In this document: in pieces, positions 2,743-63,972 of the stretch
Layout of the letters: each line of letters opens with the position of its first letter
Numbering within the stretch: the first letter of the stretch is position 1
Assembly: GCA_027484085.1 (NCBI GenBank)
Contig: JAIXQF010000010.1
Span: 186,970 to 250,969 of the forward strand
Source: Actinomycetales bacterium
Lineage (GTDB): Bacteria; Actinomycetota; Actinomycetes; S36-B12; UBA5976
Length of the DNA: 64,000 nucleotides
Reading direction: 5' to 3'
Notes under the pieces: model-generated
What the model was told of the DNA's origin: nothing
Database searches by the model: none
What the model saw: the letters and a program-made list of their open reading frames with translations, nothing else
Program-made: the position numbers and the translations under genes

Positions 2743-3408
2743 TTAGCGCTTCCAGTTTTTAATGTATTCCGGAATCGGGATGTTCTTTTCAGTTGTCATT
2801 GGGTCGGAAACGGGTTCGCCAAAAACTTCTTTCAGGGGAACATAGCCTGCCCAAATATTTGAATAAATCGGATCGGTTAGATCACTTGGCACATCATCAG
2901 GGTCGCCTTGGCTTACTTTGCAAGAAACTTCATTGAGATCAAGTGCCAGCATCAGAGTGGCTTTAGATTCTTTTGGTGCCGCTTTGCGAGCTTCCTCAGT
3001 GCGACCAGGAAGCAAATGATCCGTGATGCGAATCAGTGCTGCTTCTTTAGCTTCGCCCTCAAGTACTTCACAAGATCCCAACGCAATTACGCAGCGGTAA
3101 TGCATGCTGGATTCAAAAGCGCTTCGAGCTAGCACCATGCCATCAAGCAAAGTGACAGTAAAGCAGCAGGGTTGTCCCGCAGCTAAATTCTTAAACAGTC
3201 TCGAGGCAGTTGAACCATGGAAAAGGACTCGATCGCCATCCCGGGCATAACCCACTGGCATAACGAAAGGTTGCCCATCTACTACACAAGAAACGTGAGC
3301 TACTAGGCCAGCATCTAGAATTGCATTTACTTCAGCACGATCTTTAACCGCTTTTTCAGGAAAGCGACGGACCGAAGTTCGGTCCGTCGCTCCAACTGGA
3401 TTAGTCAT
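2743..3408 (-). CDS. Pyridoxamine 5'-phosphate oxidase-family (PNPOx-like, FMN-binding split-barrel) protein
   Basis: 221 aa. Pattern RRFPEKA...DRAEVNAILDAGLVAHVS...GQPFVMPVGYARDGDRVLFHGS is typical of the PNPOx-like family. Its start overlaps the aminotransferase stop (TAATG at 3406-3410). Confidence 0.6.
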   Translation of the reverse strand: MTNPVGATDRTSVRRFPEKAVKDRAEVNAILDAGLVAHVSCVVDGQPFVMPVGYARDGDRVLFHGSTASRLFKNLAAGQPCCFTVTLLDGMVLARSAFESSMHYRCVIALGSCEVLEGEAKEAALIRITDHLLPGRTEEARKAAPKESKATLMLALDLNEVSCKVSQGDPDDVPSDLTDPIYSNIWAGYVPLKEVFGEPVSDPMTTEKNIPIPEYIKNWKR

Positions 3409-6815: not shown

Positions 6816-6850
6816 AAAAATAGGCACCTCGAAATGGGGTGCCTATTTTT
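6816..6850 (+). terminator. Rho-independent terminator after the aldehyde dehydrogenase
   Basis: Stem TAGGCACC (6821-6828) pairs with GGTGCCTA (6838-6845), extended by A/T pairs, with a 9-nt loop. A T5 run follows at 6846-6850. Confidence 0.7.
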
Positions 6851-9641: not shown

Positions 9642-9713
9642 ATTGGGATAACGCTTGATTTGGGTGGATTTTCCTAAAGATTGGAAACTTGTCTGCCGCT
9701 AGCCTTATGCTGT

Positions 9714-9729
9714 TCGAACAAATGTTCGA
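9714..9729. promoter_or_regulatory. LexA (SOS) box of the actinobacterial type, TCGAAC-N4-GTTCGA
   Basis: The sequence TCGAACAAATGTTCGA matches the Mycobacterium/Gram-positive SOS box consensus exactly. It sits 10 nt upstream of the ATG at 9740 of the first gene of the dnaE2 operon. Confidence 0.7.
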
Positions 9730-9739
9730 AAGGCTTGTT

Positions 9740-10078
9740 ATGTCCCGCAACTACGGCGCCAGCTCCAAATCTCTGGCTTACGTAAGCACTAACGCTGATG
9801 GTGCTCCGAATTGGTTTAGTTGGCGTGGCCGCAGGTATGTAGTGCTGGCAATTTTATTCAGCTGGCTTGAAGTTGCTCCGTGGTGGCGTGCTCGCCAAGC
9901 CCGAGAGTGGCAGGTCTGGCGCATTGAAGCAGCCGATCAGGCCGCACAAAAAGACTCAGGCGCCCGTGACATGGACACGCCTAACTCAGGCGCCTGTTAC
10001 ATGGACACGCCTAACTCAGGCGTGTATGACATAGCAACTAGCGACCAGCGATGGTTCATCCGTCGCGTAATGGATTGA
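9740..10078 (+). CDS. Small uncharacterised protein (from memory resembles the actinobacterial DUF6504 family)
   Basis: Conserved-looking core WFSWRGRRYVVLAILFSWLEVAPWW...EWQVWRIEA...GVYDIATSDQRWFIRRVMD. The start at 9740 has an AAAGG RBS 6 nt upstream. The longer ORF from 9689 would contain the SOS box. The gene carries an in-frame 30-bp duplication. Confidence 0.5.
   Translation: MSRNYGASSKSLAYVSTNADGAPNWFSWRGRRYVVLAILFSWLEVAPWWRARQAREWQVWRIEAADQAAQKDSGARDMDTPNSGACYMDTPNSGVYDIATSDQRWFIRRVMD
9955..10034 (+). repeat. In-frame 30-bp tandem duplication (2 full copies plus a diverged partial copy) inside the small ORF
   Basis: CTCAGGCGCCCGTGACATGGACACGCCTAA (9955-9984) and CTCAGGCGCCTGTTACATGGACACGCCTAA (9985-10014) differ at 2 positions. 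A third, partial unit begins CTCAGGCGTGTATGACAT. Translation is DSGARDMDTPNSGACYMDTPNSGVYD. Confidence 0.9.
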
Positions 10079-10646: not shown

Positions 10647-13600
10647 ATGGATCAAGGCTTTATTCATCTGCATGTGGCATCCGCATTGTCTATGCGTTAT
10701 GGCACAAGCACGCCACAAGACTTAGTGCTTCGGGCGACTGAATATGGTCAAACTGCATTGGCTTTAACGGATCGCGATACCGTAGCGGGCGCAGTCAGTT
10801 TTATCCATGCTTGCGCGAGTGCAAACGTCTCACCAATTCTTGGCGTCGATATTGCATTAGAGACTCCACAGCCATACTTGCCAACTCCAGCACATGGCGG
10901 GAAGTGGGTTAAGCCAGAACGACCACGAGTTACCCTGTTGGCGCACGACAAACTTAGTTGGGCTGGTTTGTGCGCAGTTATTTCACAAGCTCATAAAGAT
11001 TCTCGCGAAGATCCAGAAATTAATCGGCAGGAGTTATTAAGGCTTGCTGGTGAGCATGGGTTAATTGCGTTACTGGGCCCACGGTCTGACATCGGTTACA
11101 ACATCCTCAATCGCAGGCCGGATCGAGCTTTGGATCATTTGAGAACTTGGCAAGACCACGGCGTTCGGACGTACTTAGAAATTGCTACCCATCACCAAAG
11201 TCCAGATGGTTCAAATCTTTCAGACACTTTTGCAGCCCGAATTTTGCAGTGGGCGATTGTGCATAAAACTCAAGCGGTTTTAACAAATTTGGTTAGGTAT
11301 CGGGATCCCAAAGATTCTCGAATTGCAGATGTGCTTGATGCCTCACGCCGACAGATTGCACTATCAAATCAACCCACAACCAGTCAGGCATTCTTGGCTT
11401 CAAGTCAGCACATGAGCGCTATTGCACAGCGAGTTTCTAGCTTGGTTGGTGATCCGCGCGATATTGGTAAGGCATTACTCAGGCAAACCGTAGTTCTTGG
11501 CCAAGAATGCATAATTGACCCACAGGCAGACCTAGGTATGAACCAGGTTTATGTGCCTGAGTTATCGAAGTTATTGCCGGGTGAAACTCGCAGCGCCGAC
11601 AGCATTCTGCAAGAACGTTGTGAAGTTAGCTTTTCGAATTACTTAACTGATAATTCGGTTACTCGTAGCGATGATCGTCGTATTACTAGAGAGCGATTAG
11701 ATTCCGAGTTGTCAGTAATCAAACAGATGGGTTTGGCTGGCTACGTTTTAACCGTTGCGCAAGTTGTGGACATGATTCGAGCTATGAAAGTTCGGGTTGC
11801 CGCTCGAGGGTCAGGCGCTGGAAGTTTTATTAACCATTTATTAGGAATTTCTGGTGTTGACCCAATCAAACACAATCTTTTAATGGAACGATTTGTTTCC
11901 ACACTTCGCCCTGGCTTGCCAGACATAGATATAGATGTTGAGTCAGATCGTCGAATTGAAATTTATCAAGCTATCTTTGATCGATTTGGAGACCAGCGAA
12001 CCACTTGTGTTTCGATGCGCGAAACTTATCGAGTTCGACATGCCATTCGTGATGTTGGCGCAGCCTTAGGGATGCCACCAGGAGAAATAAATACTTTTGC
12101 TAAGTCTTTCCCACACATTAGAGCTCGTTACATCAGAAGCGCGCTAGCTGAATTGCCAGAACTGCGTCGAAGTGGGATTGGTGTGCGAGCTGCGCGCGGA
12201 GATCTAGATCAATTCCTTGACTTAGTAGAAGGCTTAGACGGATTACCTAGGCATACTGCGCTGCACCCGTGCGGAATAGTGCTTTCAGATTTATCGCTGT
12301 TGCAGCGCACCCCAGTTCAACCAAGTGCTCAAGAATTTCCGATGTCACAATTTGATAAGGATGATGTAGAGCACATGGGGTTACTAAAGCTCGATGTGCT
12401 CGGAGTTCGCATGCAGTCAGCTTTGGCTTATGCCATCGATCAGGTTTACCAAGTTCAAGGACCTGGCGCTCACGGCGCAGATTCAACCGGAAAGATTAAT
12501 CTGGAAACGGTTCCTCGTGACGATCCAGAAACTTTTGCATTAATTCAAAGCACCAAAACTCTAGGCTGCTTCCAAATTGAATCGCCAGGCCAGCGAGAGT
12601 TAATTGGAAAGTTTGCTCCAGTTTCATTTGGTGACTTAATTACTGACATTTCACTATTTCGACCTGGACCAGTTAAAAGTGACATGATCACGCCGTTTCT
12701 GCGAGCCCGACAGGGCTGGGGCATGACTGACTATATGCACTCAGATTTAAAAGAAATATTGACTGAAACCAGTGGAGTTGTAGTTTTTCACGAACAAGTA
12801 ATGCGAATCGTCTCAGTTATGACTGGTTGTTCGCTGGAGGCAGCCGATCTAATTCGTCGGCGCATGGGGGATTACGAGCAACTAGATGAAATTCGCGAAT
12901 GGTTCTATAAATCTTTGATAAGTCGCAACTACGAACTTTCGGTAATCGAGCAAGTCTGGGATGTGTTGCGAGCTTTCGCATCGTTTGGATTTTGTAAGGC
13001 GCATGCAGCGGCCTTTGCGCTGCCTACATATCAATCCGCATGGTTTAAGGCACATCATCCAGCCGCATTCTTGGCTGGAGTGCTGACTCATGATCCAGGT
13101 ATGTACCCAAAGCGACTCATTGCTGATGACGCTCGCAGTTTTGGAGTAGAAATTTTAGGACTTGATGTAAATGTTTCAAAAGACACGTATCTAGTTGAAA
13201 TTACTAAATCAGGCAGTCAAGGAATTCGAATCCCGCTATCTGAAGTTAAAGGGATAAGCCAGCAAGAAGTTTCTGACATTATTTCCGGTCAACCGTATGC
13301 TTCACTGGCTGACTTTGTCATTCGCAGTAGAGCATCTCGCCCAATTGTGGAACGAATAATTTTGGCAGGCGGTTTCGATTCACTTCATGAATCGCTAGTT
13401 TCTAGGCGTGATCTACTGTTTCACGCCGCTGAATTGAGTGCTGAGTTTAAGTTGAAGCGAACTGCTAGCTCGCGAACAAGTAATCAGATCTCTCTTGGCA
13501 TGCAAGAGGTTACCTGGATTCCTGAACCAACTGGATTACCTGCGCTATCACTTGCAGATCGCGTTAAATATGAAATTGAAGTTTTAGGTATTGATGTCAG

Positions 13601-14138
13601 CGCCCATGTCATGAGCTTTTATCGCCAGATGCTAATTGAATTAAACGCAGTTCCAGCTGATCAGCTATTAACAGTGCGCTCACAATCCAGTGTGCTAATT
13701 GCTGGAGTGAAAGTCGCTACTCAAACTCCACCGATTCGTTCAGGCAAACGAGTTGCATTCATTACGTTAGAAGATTCAACCGGTCCAGTAGATGCCACAT
13801 TTTTCGAGGAAGCACAAGATCAATATGCCGCCACACTTTTTCATTCCTGGTTACTTCTAGTCAGTGGCACAGTGCGCCGAACTGGTCCGCGTGGCGTATC
13901 GATACTTGCTAATGGTTGCTGGGAGTTATCTGAGGTTTACCAACACTGGAAGCGCGGGGGAGTTAGCGCAGTTCACGAGTTAATTGGAAAGGTCCCAGTA
14001 CACCAGTTAGATCCAGTTGCCCCAACGCAGATTTGGGAGCACGCAAGCGGGTTTAGATCCTCGCCTTATGCCGACGTTCGACCCGCTGGGTCCGATATCG
14101 CGCGATCCATGCGATCAGCCGCAAAGATGGCACCATGA
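10647..14138 (+). CDS. dnaE2: Error-prone-type DNA polymerase III alpha paralogue (DnaE2/ImuC-like)
   Basis: 1163 aa. N-terminal PHP-like region FIHLHVASALSMRYG...LALTDRD, palm motif GLPDIDIDVES, FGFCKAHAAAFA, and a C-terminal OB region. It is distinct from the 1184-aa DnaE1 at 41811. It lies downstream of the SOS box. Confidence 0.8.
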   Translation: MDQGFIHLHVASALSMRYGTSTPQDLVLRATEYGQTALALTDRDTVAGAVSFIHACASANVSPILGVDIALETPQPYLPTPAHGGKWVKPERPRVTLLAHDKLSWAGLCAVISQAHKDSREDPEINRQELLRLAGEHGLIALLGPRSDIGYNILNRRPDRALDHLRTWQDHGVRTYLEIATHHQSPDGSNLSDTFAARILQWAIVHKTQAVLTNLVRYRDPKDSRIADVLDASRRQIALSNQPTTSQAFLASSQHMSAIAQRVSSLVGDPRDIGKALLRQTVVLGQECIIDPQADLGMNQVYVPELSKLLPGETRSADSILQERCEVSFSNYLTDNSVTRSDDRRITRERLDSELSVIKQMGLAGYVLTVAQVVDMIRAMKVRVAARGSGAGSFINHLLGISGVDPIKHNLLMERFVSTLRPGLPDIDIDVESDRRIEIYQAIFDRFGDQRTTCVSMRETYRVRHAIRDVGAALGMPPGEINTFAKSFPHIRARYIRSALAELPELRRSGIGVRAARGDLDQFLDLVEGLDGLPRHTALHPCGIVLSDLSLLQRTPVQPSAQEFPMSQFDKDDVEHMGLLKLDVLGVRMQSALAYAIDQVYQVQGPGAHGADSTGKINLETVPRDDPETFALIQSTKTLGCFQIESPGQRELIGKFAPVSFGDLITDISLFRPGPVKSDMITPFLRARQGWGMTDYMHSDLKEILTETSGVVVFHEQVMRIVSVMTGCSLEAADLIRRRMGDYEQLDEIREWFYKSLISRNYELSVIEQVWDVLRAFASFGFCKAHAAAFALPTYQSAWFKAHHPAAFLAGVLTHDPGMYPKRLIADDARSFGVEILGLDVNVSKDTYLVEITKSGSQGIRIPLSEVKGISQQEVSDIISGQPYASLADFVIRSRASRPIVERIILAGGFDSLHESLVSRRDLLFHAAELSAEFKLKRTASSRTSNQISLGMQEVTWIPEPTGLPALSLADRVKYEIEVLGIDVSAHVMSFYRQMLIELNAVPADQLLTVRSQSSVLIAGVKVATQTPPIRSGKRVAFITLEDSTGPVDATFFEEAQDQYAATLFHSWLLLVSGTVRRTGPRGVSILANGCWELSEVYQHWKRGGVSAVHELIGKVPVHQLDPVAPTQIWEHASGFRSSPYADVRPAGSDIARSMRSAAKMAP

Positions 14139-17882: not shown

Positions 17883-17926
17883 GTTCCAACCAATTGATCG
17901 CAATCACAACATCAGCTAAAGAAAAT

Positions 17927-18018
17927 GATGCTGCCTTTGGCCTCTGGCTGTTGGCACGATCCTGGCGCACCTTCCCCGGTGCCAGGCTCACCAACGGCCA
18001 GGGACTAAAGGCAGCATC
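17927..18018 (+). ncRNA. 92-nt extended hairpin in the mraZ-rsmH spacer (probably the actinobacterial 'mraW' RNA motif)
   Basis: Three stacked helices. Helix 1 is 12 bp: GAUGCUGCCUUU (17927-38) with AAAGGCAGCAUC (18007-18). Helix 2 is 13 bp: 17942-54 with 17991-18003. Helix 3 is about 8 bp: CCUGGCGC (17961-68) with GUGCCAGG (17979-86). Confidence 0.55.
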
Positions 18019-18036
18019 AAGATTTGAAATTGCGCA

Positions 18037-34887: not shown

Positions 34888-35694
34888 ATGGCTCTTACGC
34901 CTGAAGATGTGCGAAACAAGCAATTCACCACAGTTCGATTCAAAGAAGGCTATGACCTAGATGAAGTTGATAACTTCCTAGATGAAATCGAAGTAGCTCT
35001 GACTGCAGCAACTCGTGAAGCAGATGACTTGCGCGCTACTGCAAAGGGTGAAGTTCCGGAATCAATTCGCGAAGAAATCCGTGCACTTGGTGATGAGAAT
35101 GCTCGTTTGAAGAGCGAACTAGATCAGGCTGCTAAGGCACTCGCTGATGCAAATGCTCGTGGCGTTATTTCAGATGACAGTGCTGCAAGCAACGAAGCGC
35201 TTAAGTCTGCACATGAGCAGATCAATGAACTTGAACAGCAAGTTAAGTCAGGCAAAGAAGAGCTTGATAGTAGCTTGGCTGTTATCTCCGAACTTAAATC
35301 TCAACTTGATGCAGCACTAGCCGAAGGCGCAGCCTCAGCAGCGTCCGCAGCAGTTTCCGCATCACCAGCCGAACAGGGTATCGCATCAGTTCGCATTCTT
35401 GAACTGGCGCAGCGCACCGCAGATGAGGCAGTAGCTGCCGCTCGCATCGAATCAGAGCAAATGCTAAGTTCTGCAAAGTCCACATCTGAGGAACTAGTTT
35501 CTGAGGCAAAGACAAACGTTGCTAACATCACTCGTGAGTTTGAGTCCCAGCGAGTAGCGATGGAACGTCGCGTTGAGGAATTACGTGCCTATGAGCGCGA
35601 ATACCGTGGACGTCTCCGTAGCTACCTAGAGGGTCAGTTGCGTGAACTTGAATCCAAGAACATCAACGGTGACCGTCAGGTAACTGAAGACTAA
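34888..35694 (+). CDS. divIVA: DivIVA/Wag31 polar-growth coiled-coil protein
   Basis: MALTPEDVRNKQFTTVRFKEGYDLDEVDNFLDEIE N-terminal domain followed by a long coiled coil. Confidence 0.88.
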   Translation: MALTPEDVRNKQFTTVRFKEGYDLDEVDNFLDEIEVALTAATREADDLRATAKGEVPESIREEIRALGDENARLKSELDQAAKALADANARGVISDDSAASNEALKSAHEQINELEQQVKSGKEELDSSLAVISELKSQLDAALAEGAASAASAAVSASPAEQGIASVRILELAQRTADEAVAAARIESEQMLSSAKSTSEELVSEAKTNVANITREFESQRVAMERRVEELRAYEREYRGRLRSYLEGQLRELESKNINGDRQVTED

Positions 35695-35707
35695 TTCTTA
35701 AAACAAA

Positions 35708-35743
35708 AAACAAGGCCCGGGATTATCCCAGGCCTTGTTTTTT
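35708..35743. terminator. Bidirectional rho-independent terminator between divIVA (+) and ileS (-)
   Basis: 14 bp paired with one C/A mismatch: AAACAAGGCCCGGGA / TCCCAGGCCTTGTTT, loop TTA. It is flanked by an A-run (35705-10) and a T-run (35738-43). Confidence 0.8.
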
Positions 35744-35750
35744 GCTTTAG

Positions 35751-39444: not shown

Positions 39445-40281
39445 ATGGCTGCGAAACCAGCTAAGAAAGCGCCGGCAAAGGCAAGTGCTGCTAAAAAGGC
39501 TCCTGCTAAAAAGGCTCCCGCCAAAAAAGCCCCAGTTGCTAAGAAGGTTGCTGCCAAGAAGGCTCCGACTAAAGCCACTCCTGCCAAGGCAGCTAAGAAA
39601 TCAGCGCCGGTAAAAGCGGCGAAGAAGCCTGCGGTTAAGAAGGCAGCGCCAGCAAAACCAGTGAAAAAGGTCGCTCCAGTTAAGCCTGTTAAGAAAGCTG
39701 CTGAGCCAAAGCCAGTTGTAGTTAAAGAGCCAAAAGTTACGAAAGCCCAGCTTGCTGCTATCGCAAAAGCGGAAGCCGCTGCAGCCGCCGCACTAGCCGG
39801 TCCACCTGTTCAGGTTATTAACCCGATTGGTTCTGTTGGTCTGCCGTCTGTTCGTAAAGCTGTACCAGGTAAAAAAGCCGCTCCAAAACATCCGGTGGTT
39901 CAGGAAGACGAATCTAACTGGAGTAAGACGGAATTGAATGCTGTGCGCAAGGCGCTTACTGCGGAAGCCGAAGAACTTGCCCTGGAAATCACACTTGCTG
40001 AAGAAAAGTTCCACGCCTTGATTATGGAAAGTGGCGAAGGCGCCGGTGACGATCAAGCTGATGCCGGAACCAAGACTTTTGAGCGGGAACATGAGATTTC
40101 AATTCTTTCTAACAAGAAGGACTTACTAGACCAAACCAATCGCGCATTAGATCGCATCGAAGCGGGCACTTACGGCGCTTGTGAGAACTGTGGCAAGCAA
40201 ATTGGAAAACTTCGTCTGCAGGAAGCAAATCCTCGCGCAACCATGTGCATGCCTTGCCGCCAGCGCGAAGACCGTTCCTAG
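39445..40281 (+). CDS. Bifunctional histone-H1-like / DksA-TraR zinc-finger protein (DdbA-like)
   Basis: The N-terminal ~95 aa are Lys/Ala/Pro repeats (AKKAPAKKAPAKKAPVAKK...). The C-terminus is a coiled coil plus a C4 zinc finger, CENCGKQIGKLRLQEANPRATMCMPC. The position between ileS and lspA matches Streptomyces ddbA as I recall it. Confidence 0.7.
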   Translation: MAAKPAKKAPAKASAAKKAPAKKAPAKKAPVAKKVAAKKAPTKATPAKAAKKSAPVKAAKKPAVKKAAPAKPVKKVAPVKPVKKAAEPKPVVVKEPKVTKAQLAAIAKAEAAAAAALAGPPVQVINPIGSVGLPSVRKAVPGKKAAPKHPVVQEDESNWSKTELNAVRKALTAEAEELALEITLAEEKFHALIMESGEGAGDDQADAGTKTFEREHEISILSNKKDLLDQTNRALDRIEAGTYGACENCGKQIGKLRLQEANPRATMCMPCRQREDRS

Positions 40282-59695: not shown

Positions 59696-60685
59696 ATGAA
59701 CTTGATTCCAGCTTTCATTCCAAGTCCGTCGCAAAGCGTCTGGCAACTTGGTCCGATTCCGCTTCGGGCATATGCCTTTTTTATTCTCGTTGGCATTTTC
59801 TTGGCGGTTTGGCTTGGAAATCGACGTTGGGTGGCCCGCGGTGGCTTAAACGGACAAGTTGCTGATATCGCAATGTGGGCTGTCCCATTTGGAATAATCG
59901 GCGGCCGTCTGTATCACGTGATTACTGACTGGGAACTCTATTTCAGTGAAGGCGGAAAAGGCTTCCTCGGAGCGTTTCGAATTTGGGAAGGCGGCCTTGG
60001 AATTTGGGGTGCGCTTGCCTTAGGTGGCGTTGGAGCTTGGATCGGAGCCAAGAGACTTGGCGTATCGTTTGCACCGTTTGCAGATTCGATTGCGCCAGGA
60101 GTTGCGTTTGCACAAGCGATCGGACGATTAGGAAACTGGTTTAACCAAGAACTATTTGGTCGGCCAACGACATTGCCGTGGGGACTTGAAATTGCAACCG
60201 AGAATCGTCCAACTGAATTCACACAGTTTGAAACCTTTCATCCAACTTTCCTCTACGAAGCACTTGCCTGTGTCGCAATCGGATTCTTGATTATTTGGGC
60301 AGACAAGCGATATGTAATGGGACACGGTCGTGTGTTTGCTTTGTATGCAGCTCTGTATTGCTCAGCTCGAGGATTGATTGAAACCATGCGGATCGATGAT
60401 GCGCGACACATCCTCGGGATTCGCTTCAATGTGTTTACAGCGCTTGTGATTGGAGCTTTGGCCCTTATTTATCTGACCAGGTCGAGCGAGAAGAATCCAG
60501 GACGTGAGCTCATGTCTGGCGGCAAATTGGTAATTGAAGGTCAAGAGCCTGCGGCGTTAATCTCCACAAATGGTGAGCCTGAAGGCGAAGTTTCTAAGAA
60601 TTCAGATTCGAGAGCAAATAGTTTGTCTGCCGTTAATTCATCCGAAACCCCGAAGCGTGGTCGAAGAGCAAAACCTAAGGGCTAG
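59696..60685 (+). CDS. lgt: Prolipoprotein diacylglyceryl transferase
   Basis: GGRLYHV, GGLGIWGA and GRLGNWFNQELFGRPT motifs, with a Lys/Arg-rich C-terminal tail. Confidence 0.9.
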   Translation: MNLIPAFIPSPSQSVWQLGPIPLRAYAFFILVGIFLAVWLGNRRWVARGGLNGQVADIAMWAVPFGIIGGRLYHVITDWELYFSEGGKGFLGAFRIWEGGLGIWGALALGGVGAWIGAKRLGVSFAPFADSIAPGVAFAQAIGRLGNWFNQELFGRPTTLPWGLEIATENRPTEFTQFETFHPTFLYEALACVAIGFLIIWADKRYVMGHGRVFALYAALYCSARGLIETMRIDDARHILGIRFNVFTALVIGALALIYLTRSSEKNPGRELMSGGKLVIEGQEPAALISTNGEPEGEVSKNSDSRANSLSAVNSSETPKRGRRAKPKG

Positions 60686-60757: not shown

Positions 60758-62185
60758 GTGCGCCGCGCGAAAATTGTTTGCACCCTAGGCCCTGCTACTG
60801 CCACCTCGGAAATCATTAATGGTCTAGTCGAAGCCGGTATGAACGTTGCTCGATTAAACCTTTCCCACGGCGATCAATCGGTTCACGCTAATTCTTATGA
60901 CTTGGTGCGTGCTGCTTCAGCCGCCTCTGGCAAAGGTGTTGGAATCCTTGCAGATTTACAAGGTCCAAAGATTAGACTCGCACGATTTCAATCAGGCCCG
61001 GTCGCACTTAACTTAGGTGATTTGTTCACCATTACTACCCGTGATGTTCCAGGTGATGCAACGATTTGTGGGACAACTTATTCGGGTCTTCCAGGTGATT
61101 GTAAAGTTGGCGATCGCATTCTGATTGATGACGGCAAGGTCGGCTTAGAGGTCTTAGAAGTTACTTCAGATTCAGTTGTCACCAAAGTTACCGAAGCTGG
61201 AACGGTAAGTGACAACAAGGGAATTAACTTGCCAGGCGTTGCGGTAAGCGTCCCGGCGCTTTCAGAGAAAGATATATCTGATTTACGTTGGGCTCTAAAG
61301 CAAGGTGTCGACATGATCGCACTTTCTTTTGTAAGAAGCGCTGCTGACATTAATGACGTTCACCAGATCATGGATGAAGAAGGACGCCGTATCCCGGTTA
61401 TCGCCAAAATCGAAAAACCACAGGCGGTAGAAAATCTGCAAGAAATCATTGACGCCTTTGATGGCATTATGGTTGCGCGTGGAGATCTTGGCGTAGAGCT
61501 TCCGCTTGAACAGGTACCAATGGTTCAAAAGCGTGCAATTGAACTTGCTCGAGCAGCTACAAAGCCAGTAATTGTCGCTACCCAAATGCTTGATTCAATG
61601 ATTAATTCAAATCGCCCAACACGTGCTGAAGCTAGTGACGTGGCAAACGCAGTACTTGATGGTGCGGATGCATTAATGCTTTCAGGTGAAACCAGCATTG
61701 GAATCGATCCAATACATGTGGTTGACACTATGAGTCGGATTATTTCTCACATTGAAGCCGAAGCTCTTGAGAAACTTCCCAAACTTGCTGATGATGCGCA
61801 GGGCCAAACTGCTAAGGCGATGTGTCTGGCGGCAGTCGATGTTGCAACCCACGTAGAAGCAGTTAGCTTGGTTGCGTTTACCGAAACTGGTAGTTCGGCC
61901 AGATTGGTTGCGCGCCACCGCAGTCGAACTCGCTTAATGGCTTTCACGCCAGACGTAGCGGTACGTAACCAGTTGTCATTGGTCTGGGGGACTGAAACCT
62001 TTTTGGTTGATCGGGTAACCCACACTGACCAAATGGTTGCGCAACTCGACAAGATTCTCTTGGAGTTCGGAATTTTCAAAATGCATGACCCAATCGTGGT
62101 TATTGCAGGGGTTCCGCCAGGCGTACCGGGCTCAACAAATGGCATGAGAGTACACAAATTGGGGCATGGCGCAGATAACGCTTAA
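60758..62185 (+). CDS. pyk: Pyruvate kinase
   Basis: (M)RRAKIVCTLGPAT, NLSHG, MVARGDLGVE and MLSGETS. I preferred the GTG at 60758 over the TTG at 60743. The last 13 nt of the CDS, including the stop codon, lie inside the first unit of the 47-bp repeat. Confidence 0.92.
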   Translation: MRRAKIVCTLGPATATSEIINGLVEAGMNVARLNLSHGDQSVHANSYDLVRAASAASGKGVGILADLQGPKIRLARFQSGPVALNLGDLFTITTRDVPGDATICGTTYSGLPGDCKVGDRILIDDGKVGLEVLEVTSDSVVTKVTEAGTVSDNKGINLPGVAVSVPALSEKDISDLRWALKQGVDMIALSFVRSAADINDVHQIMDEEGRRIPVIAKIEKPQAVENLQEIIDAFDGIMVARGDLGVELPLEQVPMVQKRAIELARAATKPVIVATQMLDSMINSNRPTRAEASDVANAVLDGADALMLSGETSIGIDPIHVVDTMSRIISHIEAEALEKLPKLADDAQGQTAKAMCLAAVDVATHVEAVSLVAFTETGSSARLVARHRSRTRLMAFTPDVAVRNQLSLVWGTETFLVDRVTHTDQMVAQLDKILLEFGIFKMHDPIVVIAGVPPGVPGSTNGMRVHKLGHGADNA

Positions 62186-62379
62186 GCGTGATCTGCGCCC
62201 AATAAGCACTGCGCAACCCAGATAACGCTTAAGCGTGATCTGCGCCCAATAAGCACTGCGCAACCCAGATAACGCGTAAGCGTGATCTGCGCCCAATAAG
62301 CACTGCGCAACCCAGATAACGCGTAAGCGTGATCTGCGCCCAATAAGCACTGTGCAACCCAGATAACGCTTAAGCGTGA
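62173..62379. repeat. 47-bp tandem repeat, 4 full units plus a 19-bp partial unit (MIRU/VNTR-like)
   Basis: Unit AGATAACGC(T/G)TAAGCGTGATCTGCGCCCAATAAGCACTG(C/T)GCAACCC starts at 62173, 62220, 62267, 62314 and 62361 (partial). Units 1, 2 and 5 carry the perfect 12-bp palindrome ACGCTTAAGCGT. Units 3 and 4 have T->G. Confidence 0.95.
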
Positions 62380-62440
62380 AGTCGATGTGCCGAATTTCCA
62401 ACCAGCCTGCTACAGTAAGGAAAGCTTGAAAGCACGCCAT

Positions 62441-62472
62441 CCTTTAACACCTGTCCCGTGAGGCAGGAAAGG
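62441..62472 (+). promoter_or_regulatory. PyrR-binding RNA hairpin overlapping the pyrR Shine-Dalgarno
   Basis: CCUUUAACACCUGUCCCGUGAGGCAGGAAAGG. Lower stem CCUUU/AAAGG, upper stem CCUG/CAGG, loop UCCCGUGAGG (compare the PyrR consensus loop UCCAGAGAGG). The stem includes the first bases of GGAGG (62471-75), with the ATG at 62483. Confidence 0.7.
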
Positions 62473-62482
62473 AGGTAAGAAG

Positions 62483-63040
62483 ATGACGCACGACTTTGAG
62501 CCACAAGGACACGTAGTCCTTGATTCCAGCGATATCTCTCGCGCCCTAACCCGTTTAGCTCATGAAATTGTTGAGCGCACTCAAGGCGCCACAAATTTAA
62601 CTTTGATGGGTATCCCAACTCGAGGGGCCTTCCTGGCAACTCGTCTCAGTGAGAAGATTTCCGAAATCCAAGGCAGCCCAGTTTCTGTCGGCGCAATTGA
62701 CATCACCATGTATCGAGATGACCTGAGGTCACGTCCGGCGCGCGCACTGCTACCTACAACTATCCCGCCCGAAGGCATCGAAGGTCGCCTGGTGATCTTG
62801 GTAGACGACGTGCTTTTCTCGGGACGCACTATTCGTGCAGCTCTTGATGCAATCTCTGAGCATGGACGTCCAGAACTGGTTCAACTCGCTGTCCTAGTGG
62901 ATCGCGGACATCGCGAACTTCCGATTCGTGCTGACTACGTAGGTAAGAATCTTCCAACTTCTCGAACTGAAAAAATTCAAGTCAATTTGATTGAACATGA
63001 TGGCATTGACGAAGTGCGAATCGAGCGTGAATCTTCATGA
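62483..63040 (+). CDS. pyrR: Bifunctional pyrimidine operon regulator / uracil phosphoribosyltransferase PyrR
   Basis: 185 aa with LMGIPTRG and the [21 protein letters not shown]-binding motif. Confidence 0.92.
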
Positions 63041-63972
63041 AGCACCTACTGAGCGCCGCTGACTTAGGTTACGACGATGCAATCTTGATTTTGGACACCG
63101 CCAAGCAACTTGCAGCTGCCACCGAGCAAGGCGTTGGCAAGTTACCACCGTTGCGTGGACGTACGGTTGTCAACCTGTTTTATGAAGATTCAACCCGAAC
63201 CCGAATATCTTTTGAAGCTGCCGCAAAGCGATTAAGTGCAGATGTCATTAACTTCTCGGCAAAGGGTTCCAGTGTTTCAAAAGGTGAAAGCCTTAAGGAC
63301 ACCGCGCTCACGCTTGAAGCCATGGGCGCAGATGCGGTCGTAATTAGACACAACAGCAGTGGCGCGCCACATCGTCTTGCAAATGCCGGGTGGATTTCTG
63401 GGGGAGTTGTTAATGCAGGCGACGGAACTCATGAGCACCCAACCCAAGCATTGCTAGATGCCTTCACACTCCGAAATCATCTAAGAAATGGTGACGGTGA
63501 CTTAAAGGGCGTAAATGTGACCATCGTTGGTGACGTGTTGCATAGTCGAGTGGCTCGTTCCAACGTTCTGCTACTAAACACTTTGGGCGCCAAAGTTCGG
63601 TTAGTAGCGCCGCCAACATTACTTCCGTACGGCATTGAAGATTGGGACTGCGAAGTTTCTTATGACCTTGACGCATCGCTTGAAGGTTCCGACGCAGTAA
63701 TGATGTTGCGCGTACAGCGAGAGCGAATGAATGCCGCATACTTCCCAAATGCACATGAATACAGCAGTCGGTATGGATTGAATGTGACTCGCATGAATCG
63801 TTTGGCAGAATCGGCGATCGTCATGCACCCAGGCCCAATGAACCGAGGTATGGAAATTTCCGCCGATGTGGCTGATTCAGACCGCTCTGTCATTGTCGAG
63901 CAGGTTGCAAATGGCGTAAGCGTGCGTATGGCAGTCCTGTACTTAATTCTCGGCGGATCGGAGTCAAAGTAA
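63037..63972 (+). CDS. pyrB: Aspartate carbamoyltransferase catalytic subunit
   Basis: [19 protein letters not shown] and HPGPMNRG motifs. ATGA overlap with pyrR. Confidence 0.93.

Follow-up and report, generated by a model that had tools for sequence, protein, structure and literature searches.

In a clade of Candidatus Nanopelagicales, the pyruvate kinase gene (pyk) ends within a strong hairpin that carries the stop codon in its loop. This hairpin, together with ~15-23 nt of downstream spacer, was duplicated head-to-tail repeatedly in many lineages, yielding units that are closer to the other units of their own array than to those of other lineages and that are gained and lost within populations. 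The 47-bp tandem array between pyk and pyrR in the window analyzed here (the whole 64-kb stretch of DNA) is one such case. Recent tandem amplification of the pyk 3'-terminal stem-loop is very probable as the structural and evolutionary account of this array, and the fuller reading, in which the amplified stem-loop also functions in transcript ends and insulation, is modestly favored. The array is a real and fairly ordinary variable-number repeat of a terminator-like hairpin and does not represent a new kind of system.

Anatomy of the pyk-pyrR junction

Tandem Repeats Finder delineates the array with 98% matches and a score of 395 (Table 1), and identity among the units is 98-100%. An earlier note on this DNA had described the array with a start at 62173, one base off, and with only two variable positions, one of them T->G in units 3 and 4; the T->G changes are found at 62276 and 62323, respectively, along with a C->T change in unit 4 (62353), and the near-identity of the units supports the recent expansion proposed there. 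The array lies upstream of pyrR as described, at 104-311 nt from the ATG (62483) rather than at 60-300. It is non-coding, as also claimed, with no open reading frame of 30 or more aa on the forward strand; a reverse-strand frame of 102 aa (62132-62440) runs through the array merely because the unit lacks stops there (back-of-the-envelope chance of ~0.1) and cannot be conserved, as the loops of relatives read CTAG and their periods differ.

Table 1. Features of the pyk-pyrR junction (positions in the window)
Feature	Position	Strand	Basis or remark
pyk (pyruvate kinase) CDS	60758..62185	+	NCBIfam TIGR01064, 530.9 bits; ORF list
Hairpin 1, GGCGCAGATAACGC-TTAA-GCGTGATCTGCGCC, 32 nt	62168..62199	+	Inverted repeat I8; fold; covariation; covariance model
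47-bp tandem array, 4.4 copies	62172..62379	+	Tandem Repeats Finder; direct-repeat family D1; sequence
Array units 1-4	62172-62218, 62219-62265, 62266-62312, 62313-62359	+	
Hairpins 2-4, CAGATAACGC-NTAA-GCGTGATCTG then spacer CGCCCAATAAGCACTGCGCAACC	62219-62242, 62266-62289, 62313-62336 (span 62219..62336)	+	Folds; covariance model
Truncated fifth unit	62360-62379 (stem region 62360..62383)	+	Apical 4-bp stem ACGC-TTAA-GCGT is all that remains
Putative pyrR promoter	62385..62416	+	Conservation and TGnTANNNT form
-35-like element, ATGTGCCG	62385-62392	+	Followed by 18-nt spacer
Extended -10 element, TGCTACAGT	62408-62416	+	
pyrR leader, predicted PyrR-binding stem-loop CCUUUAACACCUGUCCCGUGAGGCAGGAAAGG	62437..62482	+	Rfam RF00515; fold; conservation
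pyrR CDS	62483..63040	+	NCBIfam NF003547 PyrR, 281 bits
pyrB CDS, next after pyrR	63037-63972		Aspartate carbamoyltransferase NF002032, 399 bits

The longest pyk frame opens at TTG 60743, and the start at 60758 follows the homologues, which are called with 475 aa; the homologue in contig L001 contains the Pfam domains PK and PK_C, and a look-up of the exact 475-aa protein of the window returned no record. The gene terminates with GGC GCA GAT AAC GCT TAA (stop at 62183-62185). The proposal that the array arose when the pyk 3' end and the sequence behind it were duplicated in tandem is supported, and the first unit indeed provides the stop, along with three full codons and two bases of a fourth, not the last four codons. 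The 12-bp palindrome noted previously (ACGCTTAAGCGT) is present as well, but the true inverted repeat extends over 24 nt, and over 32 nt in unit 1. Overlooked before was the actual structural element, a hairpin of 24-32 nt whose loop carries the pyk stop codon.

The 5' arm of hairpin 1 consists of the pyk codons for Gly-Ala-Asp-Asn-Ala, the loop contains the stop TAA, and the 3' arm includes an in-frame TGA two codons further on. The RNA folds at -21.7 kcal/mol (z -6.9; covariance-model match of 50.7 bits) and, in a 71-nt frame, at -27.2 kcal/mol, below the 1st percentile of the background. Among the 3'-end structures of 58 crudely delimited genes in the window, hairpin 1 ranks with the strongest, and no other overlaps a stop codon. 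Every full unit contains the 24-nt core CAGATAACGC-TTAA-GCGTGATCTG, with one A.G mismatch. Loss of the outer GGCG/CGCC pairs makes hairpins 2-4 (-9.2 to -10.5 kcal/mol, z ~-4.5; 28.8-29.2 bits) weaker than hairpin 1, and the fold of the truncated unit at the end is weaker still (-4.0 kcal/mol, z -1.3; 15.1 bits). Altogether, four to five hairpins follow one another from the pyk stop codon onward, with inter-stem gaps of 19-23 nt. The 23-nt segments between the hairpins are identical across units and part of the repeat, not unique spacers, which rules out a CRISPR array.

With respect to a canonical intrinsic terminator, the hairpin is present and the U-tract is missing: none of the array hairpins is followed by a T run, the following bases being CCCAATAAG, and a terminator scan of positions 61500-63100 found no terminator-like site, whereas other genes of the window end in canonical hairpin-plus-T terminators. 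The CCCAATAAG motif is conserved behind each hairpin. In L114 and L117, which are more distant, pyk takes its stop (ACC CAA TAA) from this motif, which may therefore be a remnant of the ancestral sequence. A Rho-loading (rut) role of the spacer was considered, given that the spacer in the window is C-rich and G-poor, and was rejected because this composition is not conserved, the homologous spacer of L008 being G-rich (GGGTGGGG). An integron attC site (AAC...GTT), judged from the sequence alone, amounts to a trinucleotide resemblance with no cassettes. The only Rfam matches on the array were sub-threshold ones to miRNA-precursor models, that is, to generic long hairpins.

Downstream of the array, an alignment of 16 loci shows the elements AATGTG(A/C)C and CCTG(C/A)TACAGT to be conserved in every lineage but L011; we infer that they form the pyrR promoter, although a consensus promoter scanner made no call there. 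The pyrR leader reported in the earlier note is real: the Rfam PyrR site RF00515 matches 62437-62499 with 31.9 bits (E 0.017), below the gathering score of 54, the leader folds at -17 kcal/mol, its sequence is invariant across relatives, and the Shine-Dalgarno sequence GGAGG (62471-62475) is located in and beside the 3' arm of the stem-loop. The array units themselves are not PyrR-binding attenuators, given that the UCCNGNGAGGC loop motif is absent from them and that the RF00515 match lies downstream of the array.

Covariation and turnover among relatives

For the analysis of covariation, 14 distinct first hairpins from 14 lineages of Ca. Nanopelagicales relatives were compared over a 14-bp stem. 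In this set, 95.9% of the cells pair, compared to 30-44% with slid partners, and 5 of the 14 pairs show double changes (20 cells); one stem position is occupied by three different Watson-Crick pairs (A-U in seven hairpins, U-A in four and C-G in three). The covariation score of 0.316 (0.122 in shuffles) was reached by none of 500 shuffles. Comparison of these sequences thus shows the stop-in-loop hairpin to be preserved, with substitutions at synonymous codon positions and in the non-coding 3' arm compensating each other, and because the arms change together and keep pairing, the conserved entity appears to be a base-paired hairpin rather than a sequence-specific operator. Pairing across lineages is lower in the downstream copies (79.9%) than in the first hairpins (94.8%). 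A census of G.U versus A.C pairs (10 versus 2 in first hairpins, 7 versus 10 in downstream hairpins) gave no clear signal as to the transcribed strand.

The relatives carry 0-4 copies of the hairpin at the pyk-pyrR locus, and their arrays consist of 2-4 copies with periods of ~22, 39, 41, 43, 46 or 47 nt. Counts vary even between contigs encoding identical PyrR proteins (1, 3 or 4 hairpins with PyrR P0008; 2 or 3 with P0019), in agreement with the variable-number behavior claimed earlier. In L001, which belongs to the same species (98.3% identity), the whole array is absent (the contig lacks the counterpart of window positions 62185-62404) and no hairpin is left at all, hence the array is dispensable. 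For 23 of 27 units, the best match is found within their own array.

Within the DNA searched, the unit is confined to this locus. Neither the 24-mer core of the hairpin nor the 23-mer spacer recurs outside the array in the 64-kb window at up to three mismatches (with none expected from shuffles), and the covariance model detects no further copy there; in 114 kb of relatives' loci, all matches are at the pyk 3' end, and the same is the case for the metagenome loci, all eight of which are pyk-pyrR junctions. An exact search of GTDB representative genomes with the unit core AGATAACGCNTAAGCGTGATCT produced no matches, so the array of the source lineage is not in the representative set. Comparison of the filled (window) and empty (L001) alleles revealed neither a target-site duplication nor terminal inverted repeats beyond the hairpin, and a MITE insertion was rejected on both grounds.

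Proposed role and alternative explanations

Under the modestly favored reading, the array hairpins on the pyk transcript would form or protect its 3' end, acting as a non-canonical terminator or pause barrier that operates without a U-tract, as a block to 3'->5' exonucleases, or both. This would keep the pyk transcript apart from the pyr operon, for which a putative extended -10 promoter lies immediately downstream and PyrR control is predicted at the leader. Any ribosome that terminates on the stop codon of the loop would have to melt hairpin 1, in which case extra copies located outside the ribosome footprint could restore the barrier. Units would be gained or lost when replication slips or when they recombine unequally, and the palindromes probably favor this. 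The missing T run and the hairpin-free allele L001 count against this reading. In vitro, mycobacterial RNA polymerase reportedly needs a U-tract for intrinsic termination, so the activity of hairpins that lack one is uncertain. Stem-loops at 3' ends mark transcript ends whether termination is Rho-independent or Rho-dependent (PMC13613805), hairpin clusters lacking U-tails were proposed as termination units (PMC8355165), and REP stem-loops after stop codons influence mRNA stability (PMC3184786).

It is possible, if rather doubtful, that only the first hairpin is functional, or nothing at all, and that the extra copies are a neutral by-product, a birth-and-death minisatellite generated where slippage or unequal recombination acts on a site with a palindrome. 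The copy number varies freely, down to 0-1 in L001 and the L088 group, and lineages differ in unit period; moreover, L006, L007, L098 and L105 have degenerate terminal units, and such frequent decay of terminal copies is expected if extra copies are weakly selected or neutral. The energies of the downstream copies, -9 to -10.5 kcal/mol compared to -21.7 kcal/mol for hairpin 1, also speak against a functional role of these copies. Weighing against neutrality, most of the sampled lineages keep at least two intact hairpins despite a streamlined, spacer-poor genome; at least five sequence-distinct versions of the duplication have recurred at the pyk-pyrR junction, and the 64-kb window contains no duplicate of any other 3'-end hairpin; and compensatory or wobble changes are seen in some downstream hairpins, which are non-coding (for example, unit 4 of L090 compared to units 2 and 3). 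Selective maintenance of the array as a lineage-specific Nanopelagicales RNA element (a 3'-UTR platform, a processed small RNA or an array for an RNA-binding protein) appears improbable. If true, the number of copies would set how stable pyk mRNA is or how far transcription reads through into the pyr operon. The array would then work as a contingency-type dial linking glycolytic flux and pyrimidine synthesis, with concerted evolution keeping it homogeneous.

A DNA operator or iteron array, in which the palindromes bind a dimeric regulator of the pyrR promoter or of pyk, is very unlikely, even though the palindromes recur at regular intervals shortly before the conserved putative promoter and the inner ATAAC...GTTAT is fairly conserved. 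Conservation of the 5'-arm bases is explained by the pyk codons, the arms covary instead of staying conserved, the inner stem is wholly replaced in some lineages (GCCAATAAC-GGTTA-GTTATTGGC in L090, CTGCAGTAGCAG in L113), and anywhere from 0 to 4 sites accompany the same PyrR and promoter; the earlier suggestion of iteron-like protein-binding sites accordingly finds no support.

We consider it scarcely plausible that the array is an assembly artefact and that the true genome has one or two units. Two contigs built from short reads of the same population (L002, L003) break within the array, and runs of 100 N interrupt the arrays of two relatives (L008, L112). Nevertheless, the units are ordered unambiguously by unit-specific variants, which, with the unique left flank, make the copy number resolvable with reads of ~110 nt or longer, and multi-copy arrays were assembled through in many independent relatives. 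Contig L003, from an independent sequencing run, is 100% identical to positions 62323-63568, including the unit 4 variants, the unit 4/5 junction and the truncated last unit, so the array end is not an artefact of one assembly; this independent support covers the array end, and the figure of 4.4 copies rests on the present assembly. Finally, the array resembles MIRU and REP in its 47-bp unit, stem-loop, overlap with a gene end and copy-number variation (PMC3184786), but that it is a member of a dispersed mobile or repeat family (MIRU-, REP/BIME- or MITE-like) located here by chance is barely credible given the confinement of all copies in the sequences searched to the pyk end, the absence of a target-site duplication and the derivation of the 5' arm from pyk coding sequence.

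Relation to known repeats and significance

The MIRU-VNTR loci of Mycobacterium are similar in that they occur in an actinobacterium as tandem units of 40-100 bp between co-oriented genes, with a first unit that overlaps the upstream gene end, internal inverted repeats and copy-number polymorphism between close strains (PMC3184786). Likewise, the 47-bp units are located between pyk and pyrR, both on the forward strand, and the copy number changes from 0 in L001 to 4.4 here at 98.3% identity. However, MIRU are a single family present at ~40-50 loci per genome, with signs of insertion and with small ORFs that overlap both neighboring genes, whereas the pyk array is confined to the pyk 3' end, derives from the terminal pyk codons and lacks a target duplication. 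The parallel with MIRU-VNTR loci drawn in the earlier note is thus not upheld as family membership, and the array does not overlap both flanking genes: it includes the pyk stop only and ends 104 nt before the pyrR ATG.

The REP/BIME elements of enterobacteria and pseudomonads share with the array imperfect palindromes at or after stop codons that are sometimes clustered; the 24-32-nt hairpins, at -9 to -21.7 kcal/mol, fall within the REP range of 21-65 nt near a 3' end. The array hairpins can be likened to REP stem-loops in mRNA, which can stabilize the upstream message and attenuate read-through (PMC3184786). In contrast to REP, which are present in hundreds of dispersed copies, often in alternating orientation in BIMEs, and are linked to RAYT transposases, the copies in the pyk array are all direct, in the same register and at a single locus. 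Tandem or clustered terminator hairpins, and the U-tract-less ('I-shaped') terminators of actinobacteria, also involve several hairpins shortly downstream of a stop codon without a poly-U tail, for which a joint action in termination was proposed (PMC8355165). Described clusters, defined as at least two hairpins <15 nt apart within ~80 nt of the stop codon (Gupta and Pal 2021), comprise unrelated hairpins, whereas here exact duplicates are 19-23 nt apart and the first hairpin contains the stop codon.

The pyk terminus provides an example of a structural RNA or DNA constraint on synonymous codon positions, with a coding 5' arm and the stop in the loop, and of a terminator-like hairpin turned minisatellite through self-duplication. 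It also illustrates the turnover of such arrays through concerted evolution, in a group that ranks among the most abundant and the most streamlined of freshwater bacteria. The locus repeatedly causes contig breaks and N-gaps in Nanopelagicales metagenome-assembled genomes and can be used as a strain marker (VNTR) for Nanopelagicales populations. Recombination inside the array also alters the final residue of pyruvate kinase, which is Ala, Asn, Thr or Gly across the alleles.

Self-duplication of the pyk 3' stem-loop

The sole strong array in the window (period 47, 4.4 copies, 98% matches by Tandem Repeats Finder, in a register identical to that found by a second, independent repeat finder) is a self-duplicated stem-loop of the pyk 3' end. 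Each full unit contains a 24-nt hairpin with one A.G mismatch, and in unit 1 this inverted repeat is lengthened to 32 nt by upstream pyk sequence, such that its 5' arm consists of the pyk codons GGC GCA GAT AAC GCT and the stop TAA (62183-62185) lies in the loop. The proposal of the earlier note that the array originated by duplication of the pyk 3' end accordingly holds, as does its recency, given that the units differ at two positions only (T->G at 62276 and 62323, C->T at 62353); the 12-bp palindrome described there is present but is just the tip of the larger inverted repeat. An in-frame TGA is located two codons past the stop (62183-62191: TAA GCG TGA), and its G accounts for the single mismatch of hairpin 1. 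Both features are common to the lineages with GAT (Asp) (relatives' contigs L102, L106 and L109), whereas the AAT (Asn) lineages lack the extra TGA and have perfect stems.

Features of the pyk-pyrR region (pyk, the array and pyrR on the + strand) and additional elements of the window
Feature	Position	Details
lgt	59696-60685	
pyk	60743/60758-62185	TIGR01064, 531 bits
Hairpin 1	62168-62199	GGCGCAGATAACGC-TTAA-GCGTGATCTGCGCC
Array	62172-62379	
Hairpin in each full unit		CAGATAACGC-NTAA-GCGTGATCTG
-35-like element	62385-62392	AATGTG(A/C)C
Extended -10	62408-62416	CCTG(C/A)TACAGT, TGnTANNNT form
Match of leader stem-loop to PyrR binding site	62437-62499	RF00515 (Rfam), 31.9 bits, below gathering score 54, E 0.017
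pyrR	62483-63040	NF003547, 281 bits
pyrB	63037-63972	
102-aa ORF	62132-62440	- strand
mraW RNA	17922-18027	RF01746 (Rfam), 69.5 bits
129-aa ORF	9689-10078	
30-bp tandem repeat	9954-10022	2.3 copies, 94%
1163-aa ORF	10647-14138	
278-aa ORF	39445-40281	
15-bp repeat	39445-39650 (TRF 39488-39566)	5.1 copies
Canonical terminators	470-505, 3370-3405, 6830-6850, 35700-35745	

The predicted RNA fold of hairpin 1 has an energy of -21.7 kcal/mol (z -6.9), compared with -9.2 to -10.5 kcal/mol for hairpins 2-4 and -4 kcal/mol for the truncated fifth unit. In a crude scan of 58 gene ends, pyk falls outside the 1st percentile of background folding energy, and only at pyk does a strong 3' hairpin overlap the stop codon; the remaining strong hairpins are positioned past the stop, several with T-runs.

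Among 14 distinct first hairpins with a 14-bp stem, standard pairs make up 95.9% of the stem cells; sliding the 3' partners by 1-3 columns lowers this to 30-44%. In five stem pairs both partners have changed (20 cells); in column 3, the third position of the Gly codon, the pairs are A-U in 7, U-A in 4 and C-G in 3 hairpins. The covariation score of 0.316 (0.122 +/- 0.019 after shuffling) was reached by none of 500 shuffles. The stem is thus conserved by covariation, the signature of a base-paired structure, which argues against the iteron-like, sequence-read protein operators previously suggested. As to the strand or molecule that folds, an unbiased census of G.U vs A.C mismatches gave mixed counts, 10 vs 2 in first and 7 vs 10 in downstream hairpins.

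Recurrent expansion across Nanopelagicales

The window has a G+C content of 48.7%. Its mraW RNA, upstream of a cell-division (dcw) gene run, fits an actinobacterial origin; the closest PyrR loci among GTDB genomes belong to Candidatus Nanopelagicales MAGs (93-97% protein identity). Junctions of pyk and pyrR gathered from approximately 45 contigs show that both the stop-in-loop hairpin and its tandem duplication are recurrent in the sampled clade. There are about 3.5 copies in L007 (period 46), at least 3 identical copies in L008 (period 47), 2.7 in L108, 2 each in L010, L102, L104, L107 and L109, 2.4-3 in L099 (period 41), 4 hairpins in L090 and L093 (period 39), 3 in L094, and 2 and 3 copies in L110 and L111 (period 43). 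In a more distant lineage (L113, 1075-1315; PyrR identity 77%), the stop-in-loop hairpin is a different one (GCGCTAGTAATTTGC-AGTA-GCAAATTTACTAGCGC), followed by a second, unrelated hairpin (AGCGCC-GTCA-GGCGCT) and then by about four repeats of 22 nt (CCAGCGCCTGCAGTAGCAGATT), which are copies of the first hairpin's tip; this is an independent instance of the hairpin-duplication process. The more distant L011, L114 and L117 have no hairpin array.

Copy number varies over short distances. Among contigs with one identical PyrR (P0008), the distance from pyk to pyrR is 146, 229 or 268 nt (1, 3 or 4 hairpins); among those with another (P0019), it is 163 or 206 nt (2 or 3 units). Within the species of the window, the last units of L003 are 100% identical to those of the window, L002 (98%) carries variant units, and L001 (98.3% identity over 4.5 kb) wholly lacks window 62185-62404, with the extended -10 and a TAG stop retained. 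The array is therefore a VNTR with recurrent, lineage-specific expansions, as the earlier note had surmised by analogy. The best match of 23 of 27 units is within their own array, and mean identity is 0.84 between adjacent units vs 0.72 between first units of different lineages, a pattern that indicates that each lineage has recently duplicated or homogenised its units. The single chimeric hairpin of the L088 group resembles a recombination product that joins the first unit of an L090-type array to a later one; it alters the last Pyk residue.

In the sequences searched, the array is locus-specific and does not belong to a dispersed family. Run without filters, a covariance model built on the hairpin matched only the array in the window (next best match E 1.7) and only pyk 3' ends in 114 kb of relatives' loci; a degenerate pattern recovered 8 loci in JGI metagenomes, 8/8 of them pyk-pyrR. 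At up to 3 mismatches, the 64-kb window holds no further copy of the 24-mer hairpin core or of the 23-mer spacer (shuffles expect 0), and an exact search for the unit core gave no match among GTDB representative genomes. The array is like MIRU-VNTR loci in the size of its units, the phylum of its host, its overlap with the end of the upstream gene and its polymorphism, but the kinship proposed earlier fails, since MIRUs are interspersed and their ORFs overlap both neighbours (PMC3184786). It shares with REP/BIME a palindrome past the stop but is neither dispersed nor of alternating orientation.

Several further observations concern the junctions. The motif CCCA(A/G)TAAG follows almost every hairpin in all array-bearing lineages and supplies the pyk stop (ACC CAA TAA) in the hairpin-less L114 (1890-1910) and L117; it may represent the ancestral pyk end. 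In L087 (843-2001), from the relative GCA_038906315.1, pyk is separated from the pyrR promoter by an insertion of about 1.1 kb and a short-chain dehydrogenase gene, and only a hairpin remnant and CCCAATAAAC are left past pyk. Assemblies of Nanopelagicales MAGs break systematically at this locus: the short-read contigs L002, L003 and L106 end inside the array, and 100-N runs lie inside that of L008 (about 2260-2360) and exactly at the expected place in L112 (about 1795-1895).

Possible role of the hairpins

In an alignment of 16 junction loci, the -35-like element directly past the last unit and the extended -10 are conserved, and the pyrR leader 3' of the latter is invariant; the ribosome-binding site of pyrR is in and adjoining the 3' arm of the leader stem-loop. 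Because this conserved putative promoter and the PyrR site follow the last unit, the array lies between the pyk end and the pyr operon's own promoter, outside the pyrR leader. This position fits a role in insulating the pyr operon, in which the hairpins on the pyk transcript would form or protect its 3' end. The terminating ribosome would have to open hairpin 1, so that additional copies lying outside the ribosome footprint would make sense. In published surveys, transcript ends of the Rho-dependent as well as the Rho-independent type are associated with 3' stem-loops (PMC13613805). In another study, hairpin clusters without U-tails have been proposed to terminate transcription (PMC8355165), and REP stem-loops affect mRNA stability (PMC3184786).

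The main rival, in which slippage produced the extra units almost neutrally, has a lower but appreciable probability. Against a strong functional claim count the lack of a U-tract, the hairpin-less same-species allele (L001), and the weakness and decay of the downstream copies: pairing drops from 94.8% to 79.9%, and terminal copies are frequently decayed. The array is best described as a locus-specific minisatellite whose units are terminator-like hairpins; that the stop-in-loop hairpin covaries, and that this recurs across Nanopelagicales, is of modest added interest. A canonical intrinsic terminator is ruled out by the missing U-tract, a CRISPR by the identical 'spacers', and a part of the PyrR attenuator is likewise excluded.

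Terminators and other repeats in the window

The pyk hairpins lack a T-run on their 3' side, and a terminator scanner calls no site at the pyk end; the organism uses U-tract terminators elsewhere in the window. The canonical terminators are G+C-rich hairpins past the stop, in several cases flanked by A/T runs on either side, and one is common to two convergent genes (ends at 35694 and 35751).

All minus-strand frames of the unit are free of stop codons, which accounts for the minus-strand ORF spanning the whole array. Relatives do not conserve this ORF, and it was judged spurious. The 30-bp repeat encodes ...DSGARDMDTPNSGACYMDTPNSGVYD... within the 129-aa ORF, which has no NCBIfam match and lies just upstream of the 1163-aa ORF. 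The 15-bp repeat encodes the Lys/Ala/Pro-rich, AKKAP-type N-terminal tail of the 278-aa ORF; this tail looks like a histone-like low-complexity domain.
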